From positions 2,280,001-2,312,000 of the forward strand of contig CP178758.1 of NCBI GenBank assembly GCA_047651235.1: a stretch of DNA of 32,000 nucleotides, written 5' to 3'. Within the stretch, counting starts at the first letter, position 1. Each line of letters starts with the position of its first letter. This document shows positions 6,920 to 31,380 of the stretch, piece by piece. Source of the stretch: Candidatus Electrothrix yaqonensis. Lineage in GTDB: Bacteria; Desulfobacterota; Desulfobulbia; Desulfobulbales; Desulfobulbaceae. The notes under the pieces were generated by a model that had not been told where the DNA came from, did not search any database, and saw only the letters and a program-made list of their open reading frames with translations. Position numbers and translations under genes: made by a program.

Positions 6920-7220
6920 GAATCTTGTGTTTAAAAGGGCACTGCAGCATTCACTGTATTTACGTAGTTGTCGCGTCCCGTGTGATAATATACCTGAAAA
7001 GAGCTGGCCGCTGTTCCTGGCCCGTGATAAAATAAACATTATCTTATCAGAATATAAACTGACGGGTTTTTATCATCATGAATATCGCACTGCACAGAAG
7101 AGCACGCACCACTCCGGTCGAGGCACTGAAAAATTGGCGGAAAACGCATCCCGATTTATTTAAAAAGCAGGTATACAATCAGGCGGGGCTTGACAAGTAG
7201 TCATTAAAAAAAGGGGTAAA

Positions 7221-8030
7221 ATGAGCAGCGATTTATCAGATATTGGATTTGACGTAAATAATGAAGAGGCGTTTTATGAATTAATTGAGAAGGCTTACGG
7301 GAAAGCTACCTCGATTAAAGCGGACAAAGGAACGTACTTTCTGTATTCGGATTCCTCAGGAGCAGAACTATGGATACAAATAAGTAAGGCAAACCAGCTT
7401 GTTGGAGTAACCCCTTATTATAAAGGGACTGGCAGAAGGACAGTTTGTCTGTCTGAAAATGTATATAGAAAAGAAAACGAGTTAGATGGTGCTTTTTATT
7501 CATGGGCAGACCCGGCTGATAAAGATGATCCGGAAAGTGGTGTATATCCCTTTGTGTTTGACGTGCCAAATCATAACTCTTTAGGAGATGTACTGCTTCC
7601 TCAAGATATTGAGATACAATTGTCAGCATTTGCGCAAGAGGTTCGTTATTATGAGAATGAAGAAAAATTTGAAAAACAGCAAAAAGGTGAAGCAAAGTGG
7701 GCATCTCAGTCATTTGTGTCTAGTGGATTATTTCACCCGGATGAAAAATCAACTCCTAAAAAACCACCAGAAGCGTTTGGAATATTTTCAGGAATAATTA
7801 AACAGACAGAAAAAAAGAAAAATGAGTTAACAGGACAGGAATTTCAATGGATGCTTGTGGATACATTGGGAGGTGAAGTCGATGTTTTAGCTGATTTAAC
7901 GTTCTTTAACACTGAACCAAAAGTTGGAGGAGTAGTACAGGGACAATTTTGGTTGACTGGACAGCTGTTAACAACGCCTCTATTAAAAAAGAAAAAGGGT
8001 ATTATAAATAGGGTTTTTGGAAAGAAATAA
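7221..8030 (+). CDS. hypothetical protein (AT-rich orphan gene)
   Basis: 269-aa ORF with a GGGG RBS-like run upstream. It is clearly more AT-rich than its flanks. No signal peptide, TM segment or recognisable motif. Confidence 0.6.
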   Translation: MSSDLSDIGFDVNNEEAFYELIEKAYGKATSIKADKGTYFLYSDSSGAELWIQISKANQLVGVTPYYKGTGRRTVCLSENVYRKENELDGAFYSWADPADKDDPESGVYPFVFDVPNHNSLGDVLLPQDIEIQLSAFAQEVRYYENEEKFEKQQKGEAKWASQSFVSSGLFHPDEKSTPKKPPEAFGIFSGIIKQTEKKKNELTGQEFQWMLVDTLGGEVDVLADLTFFNTEPKVGGVVQGQFWLTGQLLTTPLLKKKKGIINRVFGKK

Positions 8031-16973: not shown

Positions 16974-19325
16974 TCAATCTTCATTTCGGGTGGCATTCTC
17001 ACAAAATTTACAGGCTTCATCCTGCTCCCACACCGGCCCGTTTGCCGTATCGTGAACAATAATTCCTTTCTCCAGTAACTCTGTCCTAGCCTGATCCGCT
17101 GCAGGCCAATCCCGCCGTTGGCGCGCTTCTTCCCGCTGTTCAATCAGCCGGTTGATTTCCGGGGCCAGGACGCACTGCTCCAGGCGGAGAAAACCGAGAA
17201 CTCTGTTCATCCTGCGCAGCAGAGCAAAAATATCATTTTTCTGTTCCGAATCAAGGGCACCGACATAGAGGATCGGGTTCACCTTTTTGATGAATTCAAA
17301 TAGAGCGCCGACTGCGCCGGAAATATTCAGATCATCATCCAGCGCCGTAATAAACTGTTCCTCCAGTTCGACCAGGAGAGGGCTGATGGCCGGATGGGGA
17401 AGTCCGGGACGCAGGCAACGTAATTTTCTGGTAAATTCATCAATGCGTTTCAGGGCCTTGCGCACGGAATCCAGCTTTTTCCAGCTGAAATGCAGGGCCT
17501 TACGGTAATGCACCCCGAGCAGCATAAAGCGTATTTCCCGACCGATGTACCCTTTATCCAGCACCTGCTGCAGCGTCACCACGTTATCTGCTTCTGCAGA
17601 CATTTTTTTGCCCTTGTGCAGCAGCAGGCCGGAGTGGAGCCAGTACTTGGCCAGCGGCTTGCCGGTCAATGCCTCGGCAATGGCAATCTCGTTTTCATGA
17701 TGGGGAAAGAGCAGATCCTGACCGCCGATATGAATATCAATGGTTTCTCCGAGACATTTTGTGGACATTGCCGTACATTCGATATGCCAGCCCGGCCGGA
17801 TATTGCCCCAGTCGGTTTCAAAAAAAATGCCTTTTTTCAGCTCGCCGAGGGTGGAGCGCTTGAGCAAGGTAAAGTCTCTCGGATTTCCCTTTTCATAATT
17901 ATCCAGATCAACCGTCCGGCCCACCTGAATTTTGCTTAAATCAGCACCGGATAGCTGACCGTATTTCCTGAATTTGGAAATATCAAAATAGACCGACCCA
18001 TGTTTTTCATAGGCATAGCCTTTATGGATCAGTTCGTGGGCGATCTCAATCATTTCACCGACATAATCCGATGCTTTGGGATAGCCGGAAAAATCATTCA
18101 TCCCAAGGATGCTGATGGCCTCGCGGAAGAGGGAAATATATTTTGCCGTGAAGTCGGCCAGCGGCTGACCGGCCTTTTCAGCCCCGCTGATGGTATTATC
18201 ATCCAGGTCGGTAAAATTCATCATGGACTGGACTTCAAAGCCCTTGAAGCGGAGATACCGGGTGATCAGATCGGCAACAACCAGACGGCGGCAGTGGGAC
18301 AGATCGGGCTGTTCATAGGCGGTCGGCCCGCAGGCGTAAAAGGTAACTTTTTTTCCCTGGAGAGGCCGGAAGGCGTCTTTTTTTCGGCTGACCGTGTTGT
18401 ACAGGCAGAATTGCTGCCCGCTGTTTTCCAGTTTTTCCCGGCGGATAAAGAGTGGTGTGCTCAGGTAGCGCTCACCGCCGTCCGGCAGGATGGCAACAAC
18501 ATAGCTGTCCTTCTGTTTTTCGGCCTGCTCCATGGCAGCAAACATGGCAGCCCCGGAACTCATGCCGACAAAAAGTCCCTCTCTGCGGGCCAGGATTCGG
18601 GAAGTGCGGAAGGCATCCTCGTCTGCCACATTGACGATTGCATGAGGCAGAGATTTGTCAAATATCTCCGGCCGGTAGGACTCTTTCATATTTTTGAGAC
18701 CCTGAATCTTATGCCCGTAATACGGTTCCACGGCAACAACCCGGACTGACGGATGATGTTCTCTGAACCAGATGGACAGCCCCATTGCCGTGCCGGACGT
18801 CCCCAGCGTGGAGATAATATGCGTGACCTTACCGCCACTCTGTTCCCAAATTTCCGGAGCCGTGCTGTTGTAATGGGCCTGCCAGTTGGCCGGATTGTTG
18901 AACTGATCCGTGAGGAAATACAGACCCGGATGTTCACGCACCAGGGCATAGGCTTTTTCAATGGCTCCGTCCGTGGAACGGACAGCCGGGGTGAGTAGGA
19001 GTTCAGCACCGTAGGCCCGCATGATCTGCCGCCGCTCCATGCTTGCCGACTCCGGCATCACCAGCCGGCACCGGTAGCCCTTGGCTGCACAGACCATGGC
19101 AATGCCGATGCCGGTGTTGCCGCTGGTGGCCTCCAGGACAATCTTGTCCCGGGTCAGCTCGCCGCTCTGTTCCCCGGCCTCGATCATGTTCAGGGCAGGC
19201 CGATCTTTGACCGAGCCGCCCGGATTCAGGCATTCGAGCTTGGCGTGAATTTCGCCTGCTTCCGGCCCGACCATGCGGGGCAGGGAGACAACCGGGGTAT
19301 TGCCGATAAGATTCAAAAGATTCAT
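16974..19325 (-). CDS. fusion protein: cysteine synthase (CysK/CysM-type PLP enzyme) :: cysteinyl-tRNA synthetase-like domain
   Basis: The N-terminal ~300 aa carry NPGGSVKDR (PLP Lys), TSGNTGIGIA and GTSGT. The C-terminal ~470 aa are collinear with CysRS (ACGPT, PGWHIECTAM, FPHHENEIA, anticodon-binding DDDLN region). However HIGH reads DLSH and KMSKS reads KMSAE. ATG 19325 (TTG 19328 in the track). Confidence 0.85.
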   Translation of the reverse strand: MNLLNLIGNTPVVSLPRMVGPEAGEIHAKLECLNPGGSVKDRPALNMIEAGEQSGELTRDKIVLEATSGNTGIGIAMVCAAKGYRCRLVMPESASMERRQIMRAYGAELLLTPAVRSTDGAIEKAYALVREHPGLYFLTDQFNNPANWQAHYNSTAPEIWEQSGGKVTHIISTLGTSGTAMGLSIWFREHHPSVRVVAVEPYYGHKIQGLKNMKESYRPEIFDKSLPHAIVNVADEDAFRTSRILARREGLFVGMSSGAAMFAAMEQAEKQKDSYVVAILPDGGERYLSTPLFIRREKLENSGQQFCLYNTVSRKKDAFRPLQGKKVTFYACGPTAYEQPDLSHCRRLVVADLITRYLRFKGFEVQSMMNFTDLDDNTISGAEKAGQPLADFTAKYISLFREAISILGMNDFSGYPKASDYVGEMIEIAHELIHKGYAYEKHGSVYFDISKFRKYGQLSGADLSKIQVGRTVDLDNYEKGNPRDFTLLKRSTLGELKKGIFFETDWGNIRPGWHIECTAMSTKCLGETIDIHIGGQDLLFPHHENEIAIAEALTGKPLAKYWLHSGLLLHKGKKMSAEADNVVTLQQVLDKGYIGREIRFMLLGVHYRKALHFSWKKLDSVRKALKRIDEFTRKLRCLRPGLPHPAISPLLVELEEQFITALDDDLNISGAVGALFEFIKKVNPILYVGALDSEQKNDIFALLRRMNRVLGFLRLEQCVLAPEINRLIEQREEARQRRDWPAADQARTELLEKGIIVHDTANGPVWEQDEACKFCENATRNED

Positions 19326-19356
19326 CAAGCAGGATCTCAGATAAAATAATTACAGG

Positions 19357-20860: not shown

Positions 20861-21367
20861 GATCTGTTCCGATGGCGTGACAGTTGAGGACAGCTCTGTC
20901 CCTGTTGCTCCCTATTGAAACATCGTCCTCCATATTTTGCAAAATGTTTCTTCCGGGTTATCCGCACTTGTCGGCAGATAACAAACCGCAGCGCCTCGGA
21001 ACAACAGCAGGATTATCCGAAAAAACACTTCACTCCAGCGAAAATAACGTGTATACATTCCGAATTGTTGCAGACAGCAGAGAGGGTGTTTTTTAAGGAA
21101 ACCTCAAAAGAACTCCGGAAGTGATCGATCTTCTCGAATGTTGTTTTTCGATAAATGATCGTTCTAAAAAACTTTTCAGCGCCCGAATCCTCCGTCTCTG
21201 TTTTACCGGAACCCCGGACAGTCCGGAGACAGCTGTCCGTATTGATTACGACTGCCCGGAATCCAATCCTGTTAGTTTTTAAAACAGAAGTCATGCGTTT
21301 ACCCTGCAGATAGCCAACGGAAAATCAGATTTACAGTCTATTTGAAAATTTAAGATCAGGAGAAAAA

Positions 21368-22024
21368 ATGATGAAGAACGGTATAATACTTGTTTTTGCT
21401 GTCATCCTGCTATCATTTGTAACAGGATGTTCATCAGAAAATAACAGAAAAGCACAAGGAGCTTTCCGTAACAGTCAACATGCTGTATCTGATGAAGAAG
21501 ATGTTGCTATCGATAAGGAAGTACCTTTTGCAGAACCTTCTGCGGAAGAGGAAAAACTCTATTCGTTAATCAATAACCACCGTAAACAGCATGGTTTGTC
21601 ATTTATTCCGTTATCCAAATCATTATCCTATGTTGCCAAAACTCATGTAAAAGATCTTGCAGCTCATCCCCCGGCCGGGAAATGTAATAAACATAGCTGG
21701 TCTGACAGTGATCTCTGGACATCCTGCTGCTATACAGATAACCATGCGCAAAAAAGATGTATGTGGAACAAACCTAAGAACTTGACGAATTATAGGGGAA
21801 ATGGATATGAAATTTCTTATGGTGGCAGGAAGATAAAAGCAACAGCCAAGCGGGCGCTTCAATCCTGGAAGTCCAGTCGGTTTCATAATGCGGTTATTCT
21901 TAATCGGAAGATCTGGGCAGATAAGAACTGGAAAAGTATCGGGATAGGTATCTTTGAAGATTATGCTGTTGTCTGGTTTGGTGAGAAGGTTGATCCTGAT
22001 GGATATTGGGAAAAAGGTAATTGA
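21368..22024 (+). CDS. lipoprotein with CAP/SCP/PR-1-like (YkwD-type) domain
   Basis: Lipobox LSFVTGCSS. CAP-like INNHRKQHGLSFIPLSKSLSYVAKTHVKDLAAH ... ALQSWKSSRFHNAVIL ... GIGIFEDYAVVWFG. Strong RBS AGGAGA. Confidence 0.7.
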   Translation: MMKNGIILVFAVILLSFVTGCSSENNRKAQGAFRNSQHAVSDEEDVAIDKEVPFAEPSAEEEKLYSLINNHRKQHGLSFIPLSKSLSYVAKTHVKDLAAHPPAGKCNKHSWSDSDLWTSCCYTDNHAQKRCMWNKPKNLTNYRGNGYEISYGGRKIKATAKRALQSWKSSRFHNAVILNRKIWADKNWKSIGIGIFEDYAVVWFGEKVDPDGYWEKGN

Positions 22025-22281
22025 TCCCACGGGACTTGATATACTGTCGCGTCCTGAAAAATCAGCTGGCCGGAGACACCGGTGAAATCCTGTTGCGGTA
22101 TCGGCCTTTCTCTGTTTTAATTTGTTACTCTTCCTGCTTTGTTACGGTCTATTTATCAAAGATTGCGAGGGAGAATAGATACATCGTGCTGTATTCTTGT
22201 GCATTTTTACACGCACACTCACCATTTGGACAGTCGTAAATAAAGAATATATTTCGGCTGTCTCCTTTTCCGGAGGAAGTG

Positions 22282-23307
22282 ATGCATATTCTTGTTACCG
22301 GCGGTGCCGGGTATATCGGCAGTCATACCTGTCTGGAGCTGCTCAACAGCGGACATGAGGTAACCGTTATCGACAACCTCTGCAATGCGGGTCAGGAAGG
22401 GTTACGGCGGGTGGAACGGCTCACCGGCAGATCCCTGCGTTTTTTTCAGATCGATCTTCTTGATGCGGATGCTGTTGATGCGGTGTTCAGGCAGACCCCG
22501 GAGGCGGAAGCGGTCATCCATTTTGCCGGACTCAAGGCGGTCGGGGAGTCTGTGGCAAAACCTCTGCTTTATTATCAGAATAATCTCACCGGCACGATCA
22601 ATCTCTGCCGGATCATGCAGGAACATGGGGTGAAGAATATGGTCTTCAGCTCTTCGGCTACAGTATACGGCGATCCCGCTTCCGTGCCGATTACGGAAGA
22701 TTTTCCTCTGCTGCGCTGCACCAATCCGTACGGCCGGACCAAGGCCATGATTGAAGAGATTCTCCGGGATCTGCATACGGCGGATACGGCGTGGAATATC
22801 GCTCTGCTCCGGTATTTCAATCCGGTGGGGGCGCACGAAAGCGGTGATATCGGTGAAGACCCCAACGGTATTCCCAATAATTTGATGCCGTATATTTCCC
22901 AGGTGGCTGTGGGCAAACTGGAGCAGCTTTCCGTTTTCGGTAATGATTACCCCACGCCGGACGGCACCGGGGTGCGTGATTACATCCACGTGGTTGATTT
23001 GGCTAAGGGGCATCTCTGCGCGTTGGAGAAGCTGGCAGGATGGTCCGGCGGGGTACTGGCCTATAATTTGGGAACCGGGCAGGGGTATTCTGTGCTGGAG
23101 ATGATCAGAGCCTTTGAAAAGGCAGCCGGAAAAAAGGTTCCCTATATCATCGCTCCCCGTCGCCCCGGTGATATCGCCCAATGTTATGCTGATCCGACAC
23201 GGGCTGCTCAGGAGCTGGGCTGGAAATCGGAACGGGGACTCGATGCCATGTGTACGGACACGTGGAACTGGCAGTCAAAAAATCCGAACGGCTATGCCGG
23301 AGCCTAA
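22282..23307 (+). CDS. galE: UDP-glucose 4-epimerase GalE
   Basis: [13 protein letters not shown] Rossmann motif, [13 protein letters not shown] (YxxxK), and a typical GalE C-terminus. ATG 22282 is better spaced from GGAGGA than GTG 22279. Confidence 0.95.
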
Positions 23308-23406: not shown

Positions 23407-24777
23407 ATGCGTCACCCTGCTCTCCTTATCGCCGGAACTCATTCTGGCTGCGGCAAGACCACGGTCACCCTCGGCATTATGGCGGTGCTGCATCAGCGCG
23501 GGTTCACCGTGCACCCCTTTAAATGCGGCCCGGATTTCATTGACCCGACCCTGCACCGACTCATAACCGGCAATGCATCCAGGAGTCTGGATGTACGCAT
23601 GTGCGGCCCGGAGTATGTGCAGCAGACATTCAGCACCCATGCCCCGGCAGTTCCTACCGGCAGGGCAATCTCGATCATCGAAGGCGTCATGGGCCTGTTT
23701 GACGGTGGCACGAGTTCTGCTGCCCATCTGGCGATCCTGCTGGGCCTGCCGGTGATTCTGGTGGTGGATGTGCGTTCCGCAGCAGAAAGCGTGGCTGCTG
23801 TGGTCAAAGGCTTTGAGAGCCTGGATCCGCAGGTGCGGCTTGCCGGAGTGATCTGCAACCGGACAGGCAGTGAACGGCATGTGCAGATGGTGACCGATGC
23901 GGTCAGGCAGCATTGCCGGGCCGAGGTCATCGGCTCTCTGCCCAGGGAAAACGGCATCAGTCTGCCCTCCCGCCATCTCGGCCTGCACATGGGCACCGAA
24001 ATTGACCTGAACCGTACTCGGCTGATTGAACTGATGGAGGAACATCTGGACGTTGACCGGCTTGTTACCCTGGCCGGGGAAGCGCAGGTTCCCCAAAGCT
24101 CATCCGCTGCCCCACTCGAACCTGTAGGCCGGGTTCGTCTCGGTTTGGCCCGGGATGCGGCCTTCTGCTTTTATTATCAGGATAATCTGGATATGCTGGA
24201 AACCGCCGGGGCCGAGCTGGTTCTGTTCAGCCCGCTGCACGACAAAACCCTGCCGGAGAATCTTGACGGATTATATCTTGGTGGAGGGTATCCGGAGCTG
24301 CACGCAGAGGCGTTGTCGGCTAATGAGGCCATGCGGGAGGCTGTACTGGCTTTTTCACGATACGAAAAGCCGGTGTACGCAGAATGCGGCGGCTTTATGT
24401 ATCTGACCGAAGCGATTTTTTCTGCGGACGGGCAACAGTACCCGATGGTCGGAGTGTATCCGGTGACATCCCGGATGCAACCGCGTCTGCGCAGTCTCGG
24501 CTATCGCCAGGCAGAAATGCGGAGCGCAACAATCCTCGGCCCGGCAGGCAGCCGCTGCTACGGCCATGAGTTTCATTACTCCGCCATAGACGCTATGCCC
24601 GAAGAAATCAAACGGGGGTATCTGCTGGATGGCGGTCGGGAGGAAGGCTATGTCCGGGACAACACCTTGGCAGGATATGTTCACCTGCACTGGGGCCGAA
24701 CCCCGGAAGTGCCCCGGTATTTTGTCCGCATGATGCAGAAGAAAGGAACTGGCCGGGTCTATGAATTTGTTGCTTGA
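23407..24777 (+). CDS. cbiA: cobyrinate a,c-diamide synthase CbiA/CobB
   Basis: 456 aa. N-terminal P-loop GTHSGCGKTT, and a C-terminal glutamine amidotransferase domain with ECGGFMYL and a His (GHEFHYS). Confidence 0.9.
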   Translation: MRHPALLIAGTHSGCGKTTVTLGIMAVLHQRGFTVHPFKCGPDFIDPTLHRLITGNASRSLDVRMCGPEYVQQTFSTHAPAVPTGRAISIIEGVMGLFDGGTSSAAHLAILLGLPVILVVDVRSAAESVAAVVKGFESLDPQVRLAGVICNRTGSERHVQMVTDAVRQHCRAEVIGSLPRENGISLPSRHLGLHMGTEIDLNRTRLIELMEEHLDVDRLVTLAGEAQVPQSSSAAPLEPVGRVRLGLARDAAFCFYYQDNLDMLETAGAELVLFSPLHDKTLPENLDGLYLGGGYPELHAEALSANEAMREAVLAFSRYEKPVYAECGGFMYLTEAIFSADGQQYPMVGVYPVTSRMQPRLRSLGYRQAEMRSATILGPAGSRCYGHEFHYSAIDAMPEEIKRGYLLDGGREEGYVRDNTLAGYVHLHWGRTPEVPRYFVRMMQKKGTGRVYEFVA

Positions 24778-25023
24778 ACGATATTGAAGCAAGCGGGCGA
24801 GATAAGGAAGAGGAGTGACAAATTAGAAGCTGTTTTAAAAATCCTGCTGAGCCAATCTCCTTACAAGAATGCTGATCATGGAAATCTGAATCATCGTCTT
24901 TTCTGACTTTCCTGAACACTTTGATCATACCGTATCCTTTAAGATGAACTAGACCTCCTGCAAAACTGCCTGTTCTTCTCAGGCGGTGAGGTTTCCCCTT
25001 TTTTTTGTTTCGCCAGCAGTCTT

Positions 25024-25482
25024 TCATTTATCTCTTATGTGACGGAATCCCGGAGGCAGGGCAAATAAGAAACCGGGTAACGCGCAGGGCACGTACCCGG
25101 TGGACTGCTTTACATACAGCCCGAATCGCTGCTGCGGAGCAGGCCAGGCTGTAGTATTGCTTGAGACGGAGAGAGTGAGATGTACAGGTTGTAAAAAAAA
25201 CCGGCTAACGCTTCCTTCTTCTTTCTCAAGCTCTTTTGCAAGACAAAAGAATCTTTGAGCATCAATACGAAGCTCATACAGACAAAGAGCGACTGTAATT
25301 ACAAAAGCTAAAAGGGATAAAGATAGAAACCACTTTTCCATACATGATAGCGCAACTTTGTCTTGCTTCGTTAACGCAAGGAAGAACACACCAGTCGCAC
25401 CAGAGGAAACTGACAGAATATAGGCTCTTAACCTATTTCCAGCATCTTTTGCTAATTCATGATACTTTCCAATTTCAGTCAT
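25024..25482 (-). CDS. small 2-TM membrane protein (cassette ORF); 3' part probably read-through into non-coding GC-rich sequence
   Basis: The first ~90 aa are AT-rich and coherent (amphipathic N-terminus, two TM helices, ELRIDAQRFFCLAKELEKEE). After plus coordinate ~25210 the composition switches to GC-rich hairpin sequence and the translation looks non-protein-like. The ATG lies 16 nt after the attC-like junction. Confidence 0.45.
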   Translation of the reverse strand: MTEIGKYHELAKDAGNRLRAYILSVSSGATGVFFLALTKQDKVALSCMEKWFLSLSLLAFVITVALCLYELRIDAQRFFCLAKELEKEEGSVSRFFLQPVHLTLSVSSNTTAWPAPQQRFGLYVKQSTGYVPCALPGFLFALPPGFRHIRDK

Positions 25483-25498
25483 CTCGGACCCTTAACTG

Positions 25499-25580
25499 TC
25501 ATAACGCCATGCTTCATGGGCGCCGCAGTCCGGCTGCGCGAGCGGACGGGCAAGGTGTCCCATGGAAGCAAATGTTATGC
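25499..25580 (-). other. attC-like recombination site (82 nt)
   Basis: Minus strand: GCATAAC-ATTTG-CTTCCATGGG-(38 nt)-CCCATGAAG-CATGGC-GTTATGA. The L'' arm has one extra C, which gives an extrahelical G on the bottom strand. Confidence 0.55.
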
Positions 25581-25587
25581 GAATTCT

Positions 25588-26553
25588 TTATTCTGGTAAA
25601 TCTGGCAATCCCTCAAGAATTTCTTCAGTAGACTGTGCTACCGCTGGGTAAATACGTTTAAGTTCATCAACATCTACCTTGCGTCTCTTGAGATTGAAGC
25701 TTCCAGTCGTATTGTAGATCTCATAAAAATCAATTTTATTGGGTCGCGCTTCTAGGCTGCTTACGATAGCGTAAACAATTGCGTTTGGACAACGTAATCC
25801 GAATGTAACGTCTTTAAGCTCTAACGGCGAATTTTGTAAACCCTTGTTGCCAATAATGCGCCACTCTTTTTCATATTTCCACGAATTTGCTTTTCTAAAA
25901 TAAACACGGCTATCCAACAGATTTCTCGATTGTATGTTGTTTTCTACCAACGCTTCCTGAACCAGACTTGTGGGTATTTTTCGAGTTCGGTTGTATTCAA
26001 TTTTTTGTATATTCGGTTCTGGTTTTCGACTAAAACCATATCCCAAACAAATTCCCTTGTGTTCATCACCATAATGACTCCATAGAACGGGATCAATTAC
26101 CGTTGAAGAAAAACAACATAATCCGCGATCATATTTTTTTAAGATTTCGGATTGTATTTTCTGGGTCAGTAAAAATATTTCTGAGTCTTCAGGATTGCTA
26201 CCCAAATCAGGATCTTTCGCATAATAGGCAATATTGGCTAATTCAGCTTCTGCTTTCTGACTCGCCGTTTTTCTTGCATATGATTCGGCGTTCTTTCCCT
26301 TAATTTCAGAATTCGATAGTTGAAACATTATTTCATTCGAAACTCTTCTTTCAATCAGTTTTGACAAAAGAACTCGCATATCCTGTAAATTCGTGTCGAA
26401 TTCTATCGCCGGTTTACAATCGAAAGGATCATTGTACTTGGTTGGATCAGCATAATATATTTTGTCCTCACATATTAATTCGATCGTTTCTGCAGTTACG
26501 CTTCGATATCGGAAAATTGATTTGGGAAGCTTCGCCTTCATTTTCATCCCCAC
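25588..26553 (-). CDS. DUF2971 family protein
   Basis: 321 aa. FRYRSV...IYYADPTKYNDPFDC, CCFSS...VLWSHYGDEHKGICLGY and WKYEKEWRI match the DUF2971 pattern. The start is ambiguous (GTG 26553, ATG 26547 or 26541). Confidence 0.8.
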   Translation of the reverse strand: MGMKMKAKLPKSIFRYRSVTAETIELICEDKIYYADPTKYNDPFDCKPAIEFDTNLQDMRVLLSKLIERRVSNEIMFQLSNSEIKGKNAESYARKTASQKAEAELANIAYYAKDPDLGSNPEDSEIFLLTQKIQSEILKKYDRGLCCFSSTVIDPVLWSHYGDEHKGICLGYGFSRKPEPNIQKIEYNRTRKIPTSLVQEALVENNIQSRNLLDSRVYFRKANSWKYEKEWRIIGNKGLQNSPLELKDVTFGLRCPNAIVYAIVSSLEARPNKIDFYEIYNTTGSFNLKRRKVDVDELKRIYPAVAQSTEEILEGLPDLPE

Positions 26554-26602
26554 CGTTGTAATTCGATAACAATTTGTTTTAGCCGAACTTCATGTTGGCT
26601 TC

Positions 26603-26707
26603 GCATAACGATGAAGCTCACGGGCCCGCCGATCGAGCGAAGCGAGGAGGGAACCCAGCTGAGCCGCAGGCGAAGTTGGGCGGGTCCGGTGCAGCGCCGG
26701 GTTAGGC
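26603..26707 (-). other. attC-like recombination site (105 nt)
   Basis: Minus strand: GCCTAAC-CCGGC-GCTGCACCGGACCCGCC ... GGCGGGCCCGTGAGC-TTCATC-GTTATGC. The arms pair with two extra bases in the L'' arm. The stop codon TAA of the upstream ORF lies inside R''. Confidence 0.55.
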
Positions 26708-27034
26708 CACATGTTCTGCATGGACCAGCAAGAGCTTGAATTGACCGAGGCGAGAGGAGAGGAGCCACCGAATGAGCAGGTAGATGAATAAGAAGCCAAC
26801 GCATAGGCCGAGAACACCACCAACTATTGGGGCTGCTTTTGGTACACCCGCGAGGCCTAAGATAAAGCCGGCTATGCCACCGAGGATGCCTCCGCAGAGA
26901 CCAGAGCCGATTGATATGATAATGGCTCGCCAAAAGAAGCTCCAGCAGACGCTTGCTTTTGAAGAGAGAGGAAGTTCTGAGATGTTCAATGGGTTCATGT
27001 CGGACTCCGAGGGGAAAGATTCAAGAGAAGCCAT
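26702..27034 (-). CDS. small glycine-zipper membrane protein (cassette ORF)
   Basis: 110 aa with two predicted TM helices rich in GxxxG (GSGLCGGILGGIAGFILGLAG, VGGVLGLCVGFLF). The ATG lies 28 nt after the G|TTAGGC junction. Confidence 0.6.
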   Translation of the reverse strand: MASLESFPSESDMNPLNISELPLSSKASVCWSFFWRAIIISIGSGLCGGILGGIAGFILGLAGVPKAAPIVGGVLGLCVGFLFIYLLIRWLLSSRLGQFKLLLVHAEHVA

Positions 27035-27062
27035 GTAGTAGATTGATGCATTGGTGGTTGTG

Positions 27063-27125
27063 GCCTAACCATTGATTCCAAAGGCGCGCCCCTTCGGGCC
27101 ACGCCTTTGGAATGCCGAGTTGACC
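27063..27125 (-). other. attC-like recombination site (63 nt)
   Basis: Minus strand: GGTCAAC-TCGGC-ATTCCAAAGGCG-(15 nt)-CGCCTTTGGAAT-CAATG-GTTAGGC. Perfect 12-bp L stems, unpaired 5-nt spacers, and a canonical GTTAGGC core. Confidence 0.5.
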
Positions 27126-27254
27126 GTACCGGCCCAACATTTGATTCCTGCGGCGCTGCGCGCCTTCGGAACCAAACGTTGGACTCGAAATTTTCCTGGT
27201 ATAATCAACCGCAAGCGGCCATTATACCAGGAAAATTCCGGTCAACTCGGCATT
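27111..27254 (-). ncRNA. candidate structured RNA / ORF-less cassette (16-bp closing helix around two long hairpins)
   Basis: The perfect 16-bp pairing 27111-27126/27239-27254 encloses a 19-bp hairpin (27187-27205/27221-27239) and a 15-bp hairpin (27134-27148/27168-27182). All three non-WC pairs are G.U only on the minus strand. The G(CUUG)C tetraloop also exists only on the minus strand. Confidence 0.35.
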
Positions 27255-27327
27255 ATCAGGCGATGTTCACTGATAACAGGTGATAATTGACATTATCGGG
27301 AATGCTGCTCTGATAATGTATTATCAG
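27252..27327. promoter_or_regulatory. cluster of GATAAT/ATTATC palindromes (operator- or attI-like)
   Basis: CTGATAAT-GT-ATTATCAG is a perfect 18-bp palindrome at 27310-27327. TGATAAT-TGAC-ATTATCG lies at 27281-27298. ATTATCAG (27252-27259) pairs with CTGATAAC (27270-27277). Confidence 0.5.
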
Positions 27328-27375
27328 GAACTACCAGACGATTGAATGATTATCCCGTCTGATCAGTAATTCCTG

Positions 27376-27404
27376 TTTATATTCCTTAAACATACTGGTT
27401 TCAA
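27376..27404 (-). promoter_or_regulatory. sigma70-type promoter firing into the cassette array (Pc-like)
   Basis: Minus strand TTGAAA-(17 nt)-TATAAA in an AT-rich stretch, about 125 nt upstream of the first G|TT junction. Confidence 0.5.
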
Positions 27405-27529
27405 AAAGTAAACAGAAAAAAGCAGTGCAGGGGCGTAAAAAGTATCCCGCCGGTATCACACCTCTTTTTCACACCCCTTCCACAAACCACATAACGAAGC
27501 TGTCTGCTTCCGCACCTCCCGCTCTCCTT

Positions 27530-27713
27530 AAAAAATTCATCGGGTATCAAAAGGATCTTTTATCGAGTACCAAAAGGATCCTTTATCGGGCGTAGACCGG
27601 ATCACTTATCGCCCGTAAAGTGATGTATTCTACGCCCGTAAAATGGATCAATCATCGGGTATCAAAAGGATCATTTATCGAGTACCAAAAGGATCGTTTA
27701 TCGGGCGTAGTTT
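27530..27713. repeat. eight phased 23-bp iterons (consensus GGATCnTTTATCGrG...AAA), organised as a 59-bp direct repeat 115 bp apart
   Basis: GGATC at 27553, 27576, 27599, 27645, 27668 and 27691, with degenerate units at 27530 and 27622. All offsets are multiples of 23. 27537-27595 and 27652-27710 differ at 2 positions. Confidence 0.85.
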
Positions 27714-27798
27714 TACCGAACGAACGACAATACTTTTTATCCGGGACAGCCCGTGCCGGTTTCTGGCCGTAATTGTTCGGCAATCTTCAAGAAAATAC

Positions 27799-27827
27799 TT
27801 GACAGGACATACCCTGCCCTTTAAGGT
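27799..27827 (+). promoter_or_regulatory. possible sigma70 promoter of the HU-like/nuclease operon
   Basis: TTGACA (27799-27804), a 17-nt spacer, then TAAGGT (27822-27827). This lies 58 nt upstream of ATG 27885. The -10 is weak. Confidence 0.35.
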
Positions 27828-27884
27828 GTTTACAAATAAAATCTATTTTTTCATCATATTACCCCTCTGCAACGGAGAAACGTC

Positions 27885-28958
27885 ATGCCCGTGATCCACT
27901 GCAAACTCGAAGTCAACGCCCTCACAGTACCTCAGTCCTATAAAATGCGTTTTATCCCCAATAATAACCTGGGCACGAAGGACATTGCCGCAGCTATGTG
28001 CGAGATCGCCCCTGTTCTTACCCCGGATGTGGCCGAAGTCTCCATCAGCGCCCTTCTTCAGGCAGTTCAGAAGAATATGATCAACGGCAATCACGTCAGC
28101 CTGAATGACAAACTCATCTTCACCCTTTCCTTTACCGGCCGCCTGGACAATCCGGACGACCCGCTGCCGCCTGCTGCCGAGACCCTGCATGTGCGGGTTC
28201 AGCCCGCAGCAGGTTTTATGAAAGAGATACACTATCAGGCCGTGCTCGAACGGATGGACATGACTGAGAAGCTGCCGCAGATCAATCGGGTCGAGAACAG
28301 CACTCTGCAGCTCAATGATGTCCTGAGCAGCACCGATGTTCTGCAGCTGCACGGCGACAACCTGAACTTTGATCCGCAGTCGGGCAACGGGGAATGCGTG
28401 ATCAGCGGCACCCGCAGCGGCACGGCAGTCCAGACTCAGTTCGGGCCGATTTCCGACACCAATATCATCCTGATTCCCACTGTTCCGGCCCAGGACGATC
28501 CCTGGAATAACGAATACACCCTGTCGCTCTCGGTGCGCTATACCGAACACGGCACCCTGCGCACCGCCGTCTACCGCCGCAGACTGCGCACCCCGCTGGC
28601 AGTGCCCGGTCTGGGAGGGGAGACGCCGCCTGAGACCGGCATCCTGACCGGCAATGCAGCCACGCCTTATGTCGGGATCAATGCAGGCACGCTCACGGCG
28701 GACGAACGCCTCCGTATTCAGGTGGTTCAGGATGTGGCCGGAGAGCAGCTGCTCTTCTCCCTGCTTGATATGCAGGAAGGCGGCGCAGCAGGCACTGCGG
28801 TTGTCGTGACCCAGAACGGCGAATACATTCTGCCCGGCTTTGCCGGTTCCGCTGTCAGCACCCTGGAAATCACGGTGAATGAATACGCCGCCCTCTGGGA
28901 TATGATCCGCAATGACTATCAGGGCAGGCTGGTGGATGTGCTGGAGGTGGCGATGTAG
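27885..28958 (+). CDS. HU-like (Bacteroides HU_HIG-type) DNA-binding domain protein with DUF4469-like Ig-fold domain and unknown C-terminal domain
   Basis: 357 aa with RBS GGAGA. The N-terminal ~115 aa follow the HU_HIG pattern (YKMRFIPNNNLGTKDIAAAMCEIAPVLTPDVAEVSISALLQAVQKNMINGNHVSLNDKLIFTLSFTG ... LHVRVQPAAGFMKEI). The middle INRVENSTLQLNDVLSSTDVLQLHGDNLNFDP resembles DUF4469. Assignment is from remembered family patterns, not from a search. Confidence 0.55.
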   Translation: MPVIHCKLEVNALTVPQSYKMRFIPNNNLGTKDIAAAMCEIAPVLTPDVAEVSISALLQAVQKNMINGNHVSLNDKLIFTLSFTGRLDNPDDPLPPAAETLHVRVQPAAGFMKEIHYQAVLERMDMTEKLPQINRVENSTLQLNDVLSSTDVLQLHGDNLNFDPQSGNGECVISGTRSGTAVQTQFGPISDTNIILIPTVPAQDDPWNNEYTLSLSVRYTEHGTLRTAVYRRRLRTPLAVPGLGGETPPETGILTGNAATPYVGINAGTLTADERLRIQVVQDVAGEQLLFSLLDMQEGGAAGTAVVVTQNGEYILPGFAGSAVSTLEITVNEYAALWDMIRNDYQGRLVDVLEVAM

Positions 28959-31018: not shown

Positions 31019-31380
31019 GGGGGTGAAACGGATTCGACGGGGATATGTAAGCTCAGCGTTGCATGTCGAGTGTTCTGTCAGCTCGTAAAAATGATGGAAT
31101 TGTAAATATAATCGCAGACGATTATAACTACGCACTGGCAGCGTAAGCTGCTGTGCCGCTTTCTCGGTCCGCGCCCGTAAGGCCGGAGCAAAGCGTCGAT
31201 TCTTCGGGCTGGTCTAACCGATGTGCCTCTCATTGGAAAGACGAGAATTTAACAGGCTGGCATTCGGCAATCTGCTGTTTCGGGTGAGAGCCGGGTGCGA
31301 GATTTTTACCCGGAACTAAACATGTAGAGACGTGAGGGGAGTATTTTCGGACCCGGGTTCAACTCCCGGCACCTCCACCA
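31019..31380 (+). ncRNA. ssrA: tmRNA (ssrA)
   Basis: The 5' GGGGGTGAAACGGATTCGACGGGG pairs with the 3' ...CACCTCCACCA, including G3:U, to form the tRNA-Ala-like acceptor. T-arm GGGTTCAACTCCCGG is present. Tag reading frame 31114-31146 is GCAGACGATTATAACTACGCACTGGCAGCGTAA = ADDYNYALAA*. Confidence 0.95.

Follow-up and report, generated by a model that had tools for sequence, protein, structure and literature searches.

A probable small integron-type cassette array without an integrase gene in the chromosome of the cable bacterium Candidatus Electrothrix sp. YB6

A 32,000 nt stretch of the chromosome of the cable bacterium Candidatus Electrothrix sp. YB6 (contig CP178758.1, positions 2,280,001–2,312,000; hereafter the window, with all coordinates given as window positions) very probably carries, on its minus strand between about 27250 and 25200, a small attC cluster that lacks an integron integrase (a CALIN). 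The locus contains two co-oriented attC sites (B and C), open reading frames (ORFs) and matching junction boxes, and no integrase gene (intI) was found in the window, so the headline claim of an earlier note made from the sequence alone, an integrase-less integron-type array, is upheld. The label CALIN is applied because at least two attC sites without intI within 4 kb correspond to the definition in the literature (two or more attC sites, intI not nearby, elements within 4 kb being clustered by IntegronFinder; PMC4889954); B and C are on the same (minus) strand and about 1.0–1.1 kb apart, within the 4 kb spacing limit. The array is smaller than first proposed. It comprises two complete cassettes and a truncated unit, with two sites validated, and the CALIN reading is upheld for these two of the three sites put forward. 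This is an ordinary small CALIN, of an element type already well described: 2961 CALINs were reported in 21,105 genomes, 1362 of them with two cassettes (PMC4889954; 10.1101/2022.09.11.507474). Integrons were previously known from Desulfobacterota (PMC9668308), and a search of the literature on cable bacteria returned no report of integrons or integron elements. By the literature found, this would be the first sign of integron-type exchange in cable bacteria. It leaves general knowledge of integrons unchanged, and its value lies in the annotation of the YB6 genome.

On the model scores and structure described below, we take B and C to be genuine attC sites, with the top strand corresponding to the minus strand of the window. 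Site B has the boxes R″ GCCTAAC and R′ GTTATGC, separated from the inner stem by spacers of 5 nt (CCGGC) and 6 nt (TTCATC). Its R″/L″ arm, GCT[G]CACCGG[A], carries an extra G (26692) and an extra A (26685) along with one mismatched pair, and the crossover point lies between G 26609 and T 26608. Site C has R″ GCATAAC, R′ GTTATGA and spacers ATTTG (5 nt) and CATGGC (6 nt), and the spacing of its arm, CTT[C]CATGGG[A], is that of aadA1, GTT[C]AAGCCG[A]; the additional C (25565) and A (25558) leave a G and a T extrahelical on the bottom (plus) strand. In the model alignments, the two extra bases of both sites occupy the same positions as in aadA attC sites. The AAC and GTT triplets of the R boxes are exact, with one or two deviations at degenerate positions of RYYYAAC/GTTRRRY. 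B and C thus share inverted R boxes, unpaired spacers of about 5 and 6 nt, two extrahelical bases and a model score on one strand, and site C also folds well as DNA (z = −2.9). The extra bases on the R″/L″ arm that had been described earlier, including a C that yields an extrahelical G on the bottom strand, are present as such in site C, with G and A in their place in site B, but there are none in the L stem of the third proposed site, A.

A search of Rfam returned nothing in the region 24700–27950 at E ≤ 1, and no window match above the gathering threshold fell inside the locus. A home-made attC scanner, combining R boxes with a folding threshold, found only A and B in its strict form; a relaxed form that reached C gave 12 matches in the window compared to about 6.7 per random sequence, and was abandoned because it was unspecific. 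Covariance models were therefore built, trained solely on attC sites from other organisms, with none from the window. Model R1 was made from an alignment of 10 different class 1 attC sites, hand-delimited from ten plasmid class 1 arrays, and has a consensus structure of a 7 bp R box, 5/6 nt spacers and a 3+6 bp L box with one bulge. Model R2 used 32 class 1 and environmental sites, 16 of which were matches from environmental arrays. Both models were run over the whole window, on both strands, with filters off. The two best window matches of each were B and C, on the minus strand only. All three palindromes lie at the coordinates that the earlier note had given, and the ends of B and C are shared exactly by the model matches, which score 27–35 bits.

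The controls were clean. In the ten class 1 arrays, R1 recovered every attC site on its proper strand, among them the held-out sites of gcuF, aadA16, aac(6′)-29b and one more, and wrong-strand echoes there were 15–16 bits at most. Across 86 unrelated or cable-bacterial loci (1.37 Mb), it gave no match at E ≤ 10. The top chance match of R2 in control DNA (169 kb, filters off) reached 15.8 bits. A search confined to the window and about 2.4 Mb of additional DNA gave no further copies of A, B or C, and in viral contigs the stem of A and the 5′ half of C were unmatched.

The junctions had been put forward as the key evidence for cassettes. In all three units, the box following G|TT is the exact complement of the R″ box that ends the same unit (7/7 for GTTGACC/GGTCAAC, GTTAGGC/GCCTAAC and GTTATGC/GCATAAC), while R″ and R′ within one site agree at 4/7 (A), 6/7 (B) and 6/7 (C) positions, as the earlier note had described (1–3 mismatches between adjacent boxes). 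This complementarity stretches to perfect inverted repeats of 16, 12 and 10 nt in units 1, 2 and 3, respectively. Six class 1 and four environmental arrays, examined as positive controls, show the same relationship: the R′ box of one site and the R″ box of the next match mostly at 7/7 positions, otherwise usually at 6/7, and better than the boxes within a site. The junction signature is therefore a real property of cassette arrays. The rule is strand-symmetric, and shows that the ORFs are flanked by inverted boxes, not which hairpin owns which ORF, so the polarity of the array rests on the extrahelical bases, the model scores and the direction of the ORFs. The junctions thus stand as evidence, but do not assign a strand by themselves. 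The complementarity expected from insertion of circular cassettes holds at 7/7 positions for cassettes 2 and 3. The first repeat reaches 9 nt upstream of its G|TT, which insertion does not predict.

Both complete cassettes are organised as gene cassettes: each carries an ORF from a real protein family, on the minus strand, followed by its own attC site (Table 1). Cassette 2 is bounded by a 12 nt perfect inverted repeat (27059–27070 and 26700–26711; 7/7 between R′ and the next R″), and its left junction lies in the R′-like box of site A. Homologues of its protein were found in 189 clusters at E ≤ 1e-3, the top ones being proteins of about 99 aa that align to residues 13–107. Since the alignments with the best homologues begin only at residue 13, translation probably starts at Met13 (nt 26998), which would give a protein of about 98 aa. 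As the earlier note had seen, a stop codon lies inside an R″ box: the TAA (26704..26702) of the 110 aa ORF falls within the R″ of site B. In a public metagenome assembly (L005), an 84 aa ORF on the opposite strand has been annotated here (26784–27038, plus strand); the homologous clusters belong to the minus-strand ORF.

Table 1. Features of the cassette locus and the neighbouring genes (window coordinates).
Feature	Position	Strand	Description
attC site B	26603..26707	−	105 nt; R1 27.2 bits, E = 4.4e-5; R2 32.3 bits, E = 5.4e-6
attC site C	25499..25580	−	82 nt; R1 34.8 bits, E = 3.9e-7; R2 33.4 bits, E = 2.8e-6
Cassette 2	26609..27068	−	460 bp: TTAGGCCACA..., small membrane-protein gene, attC B, ...G
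Cassette 2 ORF	26702..27034	−	110 aa from first ATG; two predicted membrane helices; no Pfam family
Cassette 3	25505..26608	−	1104 bp: TTATGC..., DUF2971 gene, attC C, ...G
DUF2971 gene	25588..26541	−	317 aa; Pfam PF11185; GC 37.5%
Unit 4	25212..25504	−	TTATGA..., then first ~89–93 codons of a gene with 133 aa homologues; GC3 0.27
Terminator-like hairpin, 3′ half	25195..25211	−	GCGTTAGCCGGTTTTTT; joined directly to truncated gene; direct repeat D5, 88% identical to 25067–25083
Complete terminator-like hairpin	25061..25101	−	CCGGGTACGTG...ACCCGG then TTTCTTATTT; RNA fold z = −4.2
Site A, attC-like palindrome	27063..27125		63 nt; R2 14.8 bits (+), 10.7 bits (−); fold z = −4.9/−5.9
Site A′, attC-like imperfect palindrome	27132..27184		R2 20.0 bits, E = 0.007 (+), 10.8 bits (−)
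Hairpin P1	27186..27240		20 bp arms, 95% complementary, 15 nt loop; fold z = −6.0; inverted repeat I3
16 nt inverted repeat, left arm	27239..27254	−	AATGCCGAG|TTGACCG; inverted repeat I5; holds first junction box 27246..27240
galE	22279–23307	+	
cbiA	23407–24777	+	
Cassette locus	after cbiA	−	
Intergenic region	between locus and 357 aa gene		635 bp
DUF4469/HU-like gene	27885–28958	+	357 aa
Non-specific endonuclease gene, then smpB	beyond DUF4469/HU-like gene		
tmRNA (transfer-messenger RNA) gene	31019–31380		after smpB

Cassette 3 opens with GTTATGCGAA, the complement of TTCGCATAAC at the R″ of this cassette (a 10 nt repeat). Its DUF2971 protein has a 100% identical counterpart in Ca. Electrothrix sp. 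YB6, with the next best match at 49%, and over its full length it matches the candidate defence family PDC-S31 of PADLOC (E = 3.4e-43). Proteins with DUF2971 have been predicted to be DarT-like ADP-ribosyltransferases (PMC12522546), and one of them, the 316 aa Aristaios, was shown experimentally to protect lactococci from phages (PMC11381338). The cassette 3 protein is predicted to be ADP-ribosyltransferase-like and is a candidate single-gene antiphage protein, which would fit with integron cassettes carrying defence genes. Distant relatives (23–26% identity) occur in attC arrays, on the same strand, at 5 of 80 metagenome loci; closer relatives (32–46% identity) were not in attC arrays among the metagenome loci inspected. 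A scan for sigma-70-type promoters gave a single minus-strand match, which falls within the DUF2971 ORF; matches were about as numerous as in shuffled sequence.

The base composition of the locus sets it apart from its surroundings, with GC falling from about 55% to 36–44% across 25000–26500. The GC content at third codon positions (GC3) is 0.27–0.32 for the DUF2971 and unit-4 genes and 0.56 for the 110 aa ORF, compared to 0.65–0.72 for resident genes (cbiA and the 357 aa neighbour), and codon-usage scores are negative for all three cassette ORFs, including the 110 aa ORF. Judged from GC3, the cassette genes are of foreign composition. The description of the co-oriented ORFs as AT-rich is accurate for the DUF2971 gene but not for the 110 aa ORF, which has 52% GC, and the ORFs begin 22 to about 70 nt past their junctions rather than the 16–50 nt reported before.

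Downstream of site C, a fourth unit begins with TTATGA, and no TCATAAC follows it, in agreement with the earlier description. Its ATG lies 22 nt past the start of the unit. Its first ~89–93 codons encode a sequence with 77–80% identity to 133 aa proteins of Oceanospirillum and Neiella (80% over residues 1–89), and 55–73% to those of Idiomarina and Vibrio, while the last 40 codons (residues 94–133) are absent in every frame. By comparison with these homologues, a deletion has evidently cut the gene at about codon 91 of 133, removing the 3′ part and any attC site beyond, and the array stops here because of this truncation (break near 25212). The 80% identity to proteins of marine Gammaproteobacteria likely points to a recent exchange across phyla, the partner phylum being one in which large integrons are frequent. 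Upstream of the Salinivibrio homologue (L185, 11899–11987) there is an ACCTAAC...GTTAGGT stretch that ends 12 nt before the ATG, which recalls the layout of a cassette but scores only about 8 bits with the attC model.

The earlier note had the array ending in degenerate hairpins. The attC model finds no match there, and one of the hairpins is 88% identical to terminator-like copies in another Electrothrix; on both grounds, the idea that the distal hairpins are decayed attC sites was ruled out. The truncated unit-4 gene runs directly into the 3′ half of such a hairpin, and a complete one, an element of the host lineage (about 25100..25070), lies 128 nt beyond. The identity of the complete hairpin to that of the other Electrothrix (L099–L101) extends over 41 nt, with two copies in each. 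In two Electrothrix species, small ORFs running divergently from a DUF4469 gene end in the hairpin CCGGGTACGTG...ACCCGGTTTTTT (L099, 8257–8297 and 8974–9004), which hints that the stretch from the hairpin through the repeats to the DUF4469 gene is a module with variable content.

The sole puzzling part of the locus is the cluster of palindromes at the head of the array. The region 27245..27069 had been read as the first cassette, but it has no ORF and consists of just P1, A′ and A. Site A is laid out as GGTCAAC, TCGGC, a perfect 12 bp stem, CAATG and GTTAGGC, with 5/5 nt spacers and ambiguous polarity, and has neither extrahelical bases nor a significant score. Since its R2 scores (Table 1) do not exceed the control maximum of 15.8 bits, it is at background; for both reasons, 'cassette 1' is not validated. 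Of the attC identity proposed for three sites, that of B and C, which pass the foreign-trained models, therefore stands, while that of A does not. Site A′ has 77% identity to A over 26 nt and its spacers are paired (direct repeat D2). The right arm of the 16 nt inverted repeat, CGGTCAACTCGGCATT (27111–27126), overlaps the R″ of site A, and the region 27055–27262 as a whole folds at −75.8 kcal/mol (z = −13). The 16-mer of this repeat has 59 single matches in viral contigs, about chance level by a rough estimate. A miniature inverted-repeat transposable element was tried as an explanation for the 16 nt repeat and ruled out, as there are no target-site duplications and no other copies. The head structure may be what is left of older sites, or else one symmetric site that functions on both strands.

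Several minor features were seen in and near the head. P1 bears TGGTATAAT, an extended −10-like motif, on both strands, and might act as a promoter or operator. No site in P1 came out of the sigma-70 scan, for which a −35 element is required. Directly upstream of the first G|TT junction (27255–27335) are three GATAAT/ATTATC palindromes, for example CTGATAAT-AC-ATTATCAG, which resemble Fur boxes but have a centre of 2 nt, not 1 nt. Short-read assemblies of the YB6 organism end inside site A (27086), inside P1 (27227) and just past cbiA (about 24965–24993), the locus being fragmented in them because the palindromes break short-read contigs.

A number of observations weigh against reading the locus as a CALIN. 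The covariance models are home-made stand-ins for the attC model of IntegronFinder and their E-values are rough; the scores of B and C (27–35 bits) are well under those of attC sites from mobile integrons (42–78 bits); and site B, though it fits the attC model, folds no better than shuffled sequence (z = +1). At the head, site A and 'cassette 1' fail the attC model, and A′ scores higher on the plus strand, opposite to the ORFs. On the upstream side of the junction G, where unrelated recipient sequence is expected under the cassette model, eight bases of the 16 nt repeat are still complementary, and a repeat across the first junction is unexplained by cassette insertion. The close homologues of the DUF2971 and unit-4 genes that were inspected lack flanking attC sites: none was found in the Hahella context, nor, using the attC model, around the unit-4 homologues of the Idiomarina island and the Salinivibrio replicon. 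The structure of B and C can be read directly, and a role for them in recombination would follow from established integron biology.

Other explanations were weighed. The head (27063–27254) might, rather than being debris, serve as a symmetric attC-like site that has no extrahelical bases and recombines on either strand, with cassette entry being integrase-independent or bidirectional. We regard this as very unlikely. If true, it would explain the self-complementary G|TT-type junctions on both sides, that is, the 12 nt repeat of cassette 2 and the 16 nt repeat ending at 27254, and the entry point would adjoin the DUF4469/HU-like gene with its conserved 23 nt repeats, a gene that in another Electrothrix, too, has variable small genes ending in the conserved hairpin at its side. 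It is highly improbable that the palindromes are host hairpins, either terminators or of the repetitive extragenic palindromic type, that end by chance in TAAC/GTTA and whose flanking repeats are coincidental. The distal end of the locus does have a dispersed family of terminator-like hairpins, A and A′ resemble symmetric palindromes, and B has no folding advantage, but B and C have no second copy in the DNA searched, they fit a foreign-trained attC model in one orientation only while the controls are empty, and the R′/R″ rule of 7/7 extends to 10–12 nt. The perfect inverted repeats around each unit (16, 12 and 10 nt) would also suit small non-autonomous transposable elements with terminal inverted repeats, inserted in tandem, and the 144 bp stretch 27111–27254 resembles a foldback element. 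This is extremely improbable, however: the repeat ends show no target-site duplications, the three repeat pairs share nothing beyond the GTT...AAC core, the window has no transposase, and the hairpins between the units, which the attC model explains, would be left unexplained.

The array could also belong to a complete integron, with intI lying beyond the window or split off by a rearrangement; it would then be no orphan but linked in function to an intI of its own genome. Half of the published CALINs are in replicons that also encode IntI (PMC4889954), and the window, to which the search was confined, extends 25 kb to one side of the array and 4.9 kb upstream of its head, so the 10 kb upstream span used as a pseudogene criterion is covered in part. 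Within it, a tblastn search with IntI1 gave a best E-value of 0.58, with no intI or remnant of one, and 29 translated ORFs (the judged genes and three overlapping alternatives, spanning all major coding regions) had no tyrosine-recombinase or Phage_integrase domain by Pfam, bearing out the earlier statement that the window encodes no tyrosine recombinase. Instead of intI, attI and a cassette promoter (Pc), the head is bordered by palindromes and by sequence upstream of the DUF4469/HU-like gene. This resident gene, whose codon usage is native and which is preceded by conserved repeats of its own, occupies the position of intI/attI, and smpB and the tmRNA gene lie beyond it. The YB6 genome paper makes no mention of integrons or integrases. 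Taken together, a complete integron is unlikely, and the locus is better described as a CALIN.

In several respects, the locus resembles published CALINs (PMC4889954): two co-oriented attC sites follow promoterless ORFs, there is no intI or pseudogene near, the cargo has unknown or accessory functions with no relation to antibiotic resistance, and two cassettes is the most frequent size class. It differs in having a head of symmetric palindromes without extrahelical bases and a 16 nt repeat, and a tail that is a deletion junction within a gene. With class 1 and environmental integron arrays it shares the attC geometry, the R′(n)/R″(n+1) rule and stop codons that overlap R″, but intI, attI and Pc are absent here and the attC scores are lower, as given above. 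Large sedentary arrays have homogeneous attC sites, whereas B and C are dissimilar to each other. Cassettes inserted at non-att genomic sites (attG), including single attC sites lacking integron integrases (SALINs), are likewise found outside an integron platform, beside ordinary chromosomal genes and with G|TT junctions, and insertion at attG sites has been proposed as the origin of small CALINs (10.1101/2022.09.11.507474). Here, by contrast, the attG pattern is not clearly seen in the flanks: the sequence after the last attC site is TTATGACAGT, in which CAGT is one position off the CRGM motif (+6 to +9), and the flanking sequence is foreign, not host.

Published origins of CALINs are loss of intI, separation by rearrangement and insertion at attG sites (10.1101/2022.09.11.507474). 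The present array may be the decayed remnant of a larger one, a segment split from its integrase, or a non-att genomic insertion, and a remnant is somewhat favoured by the damage at both ends of the array. By analogy with known integrons, B and C would fold into hairpins when the plus strand of the window is single-stranded, and an integron integrase acting in trans would recognise the R box, the unpaired spacer and the extrahelical G/C and T. Strands would then be exchanged at sites B and C, between the bases A and C of the bottom-strand AAC (G|TT on the top strand), freeing the DUF2971 cassette as a circle of 1104 bp that an attI site elsewhere could take up. Integrases are able to mobilise CALIN cassettes in trans (PMC4889954, PMC9668308); with no integrase, the array itself would be static. 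Transcription, if any, would have to come from upstream, as no promoter belonging to the cassettes themselves could be demonstrated, and would end at the hairpin at 25100..25070.

The gene order around the locus is given in Table 1. A comparison of synteny from cbiA was uninformative, as the nearest relative is 60% identical, too distant for a presence/absence reading. The 357 aa DUF4469/HU-like gene is one of a large group of paralogues in cable bacteria, each genome having several, and its orthologues (67–75% identity) have an unrelated genomic context in each cable-bacterium genome inspected (loci L097 and L099–L102). Closer relatives, at 88% (P0121) and 97% (P0122) identity, are encoded in JGI metagenomes. 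Between this gene and the array, at 27537–27710, there are four 23 nt direct repeats containing GATC, arranged around a central inverted repeat. The repeats are 93% conserved upstream of the orthologous gene in another Electrothrix (L099–L101), and are probably binding sites that travel with the gene. Elsewhere in the window, there are two further AT-rich islands (7001–8000 and 21001–22000; GC 0.38–0.41) with foreign codon usage and no attC-model match; they carry a 269 aa ORF without a Pfam family (7221–8030) and a CAP-domain ORF (21368–22024). A single 784 aa ORF at 16974–19328 (minus strand) encodes a PALP (cysteine-synthase-like) domain fused to cysteinyl-tRNA synthetase.

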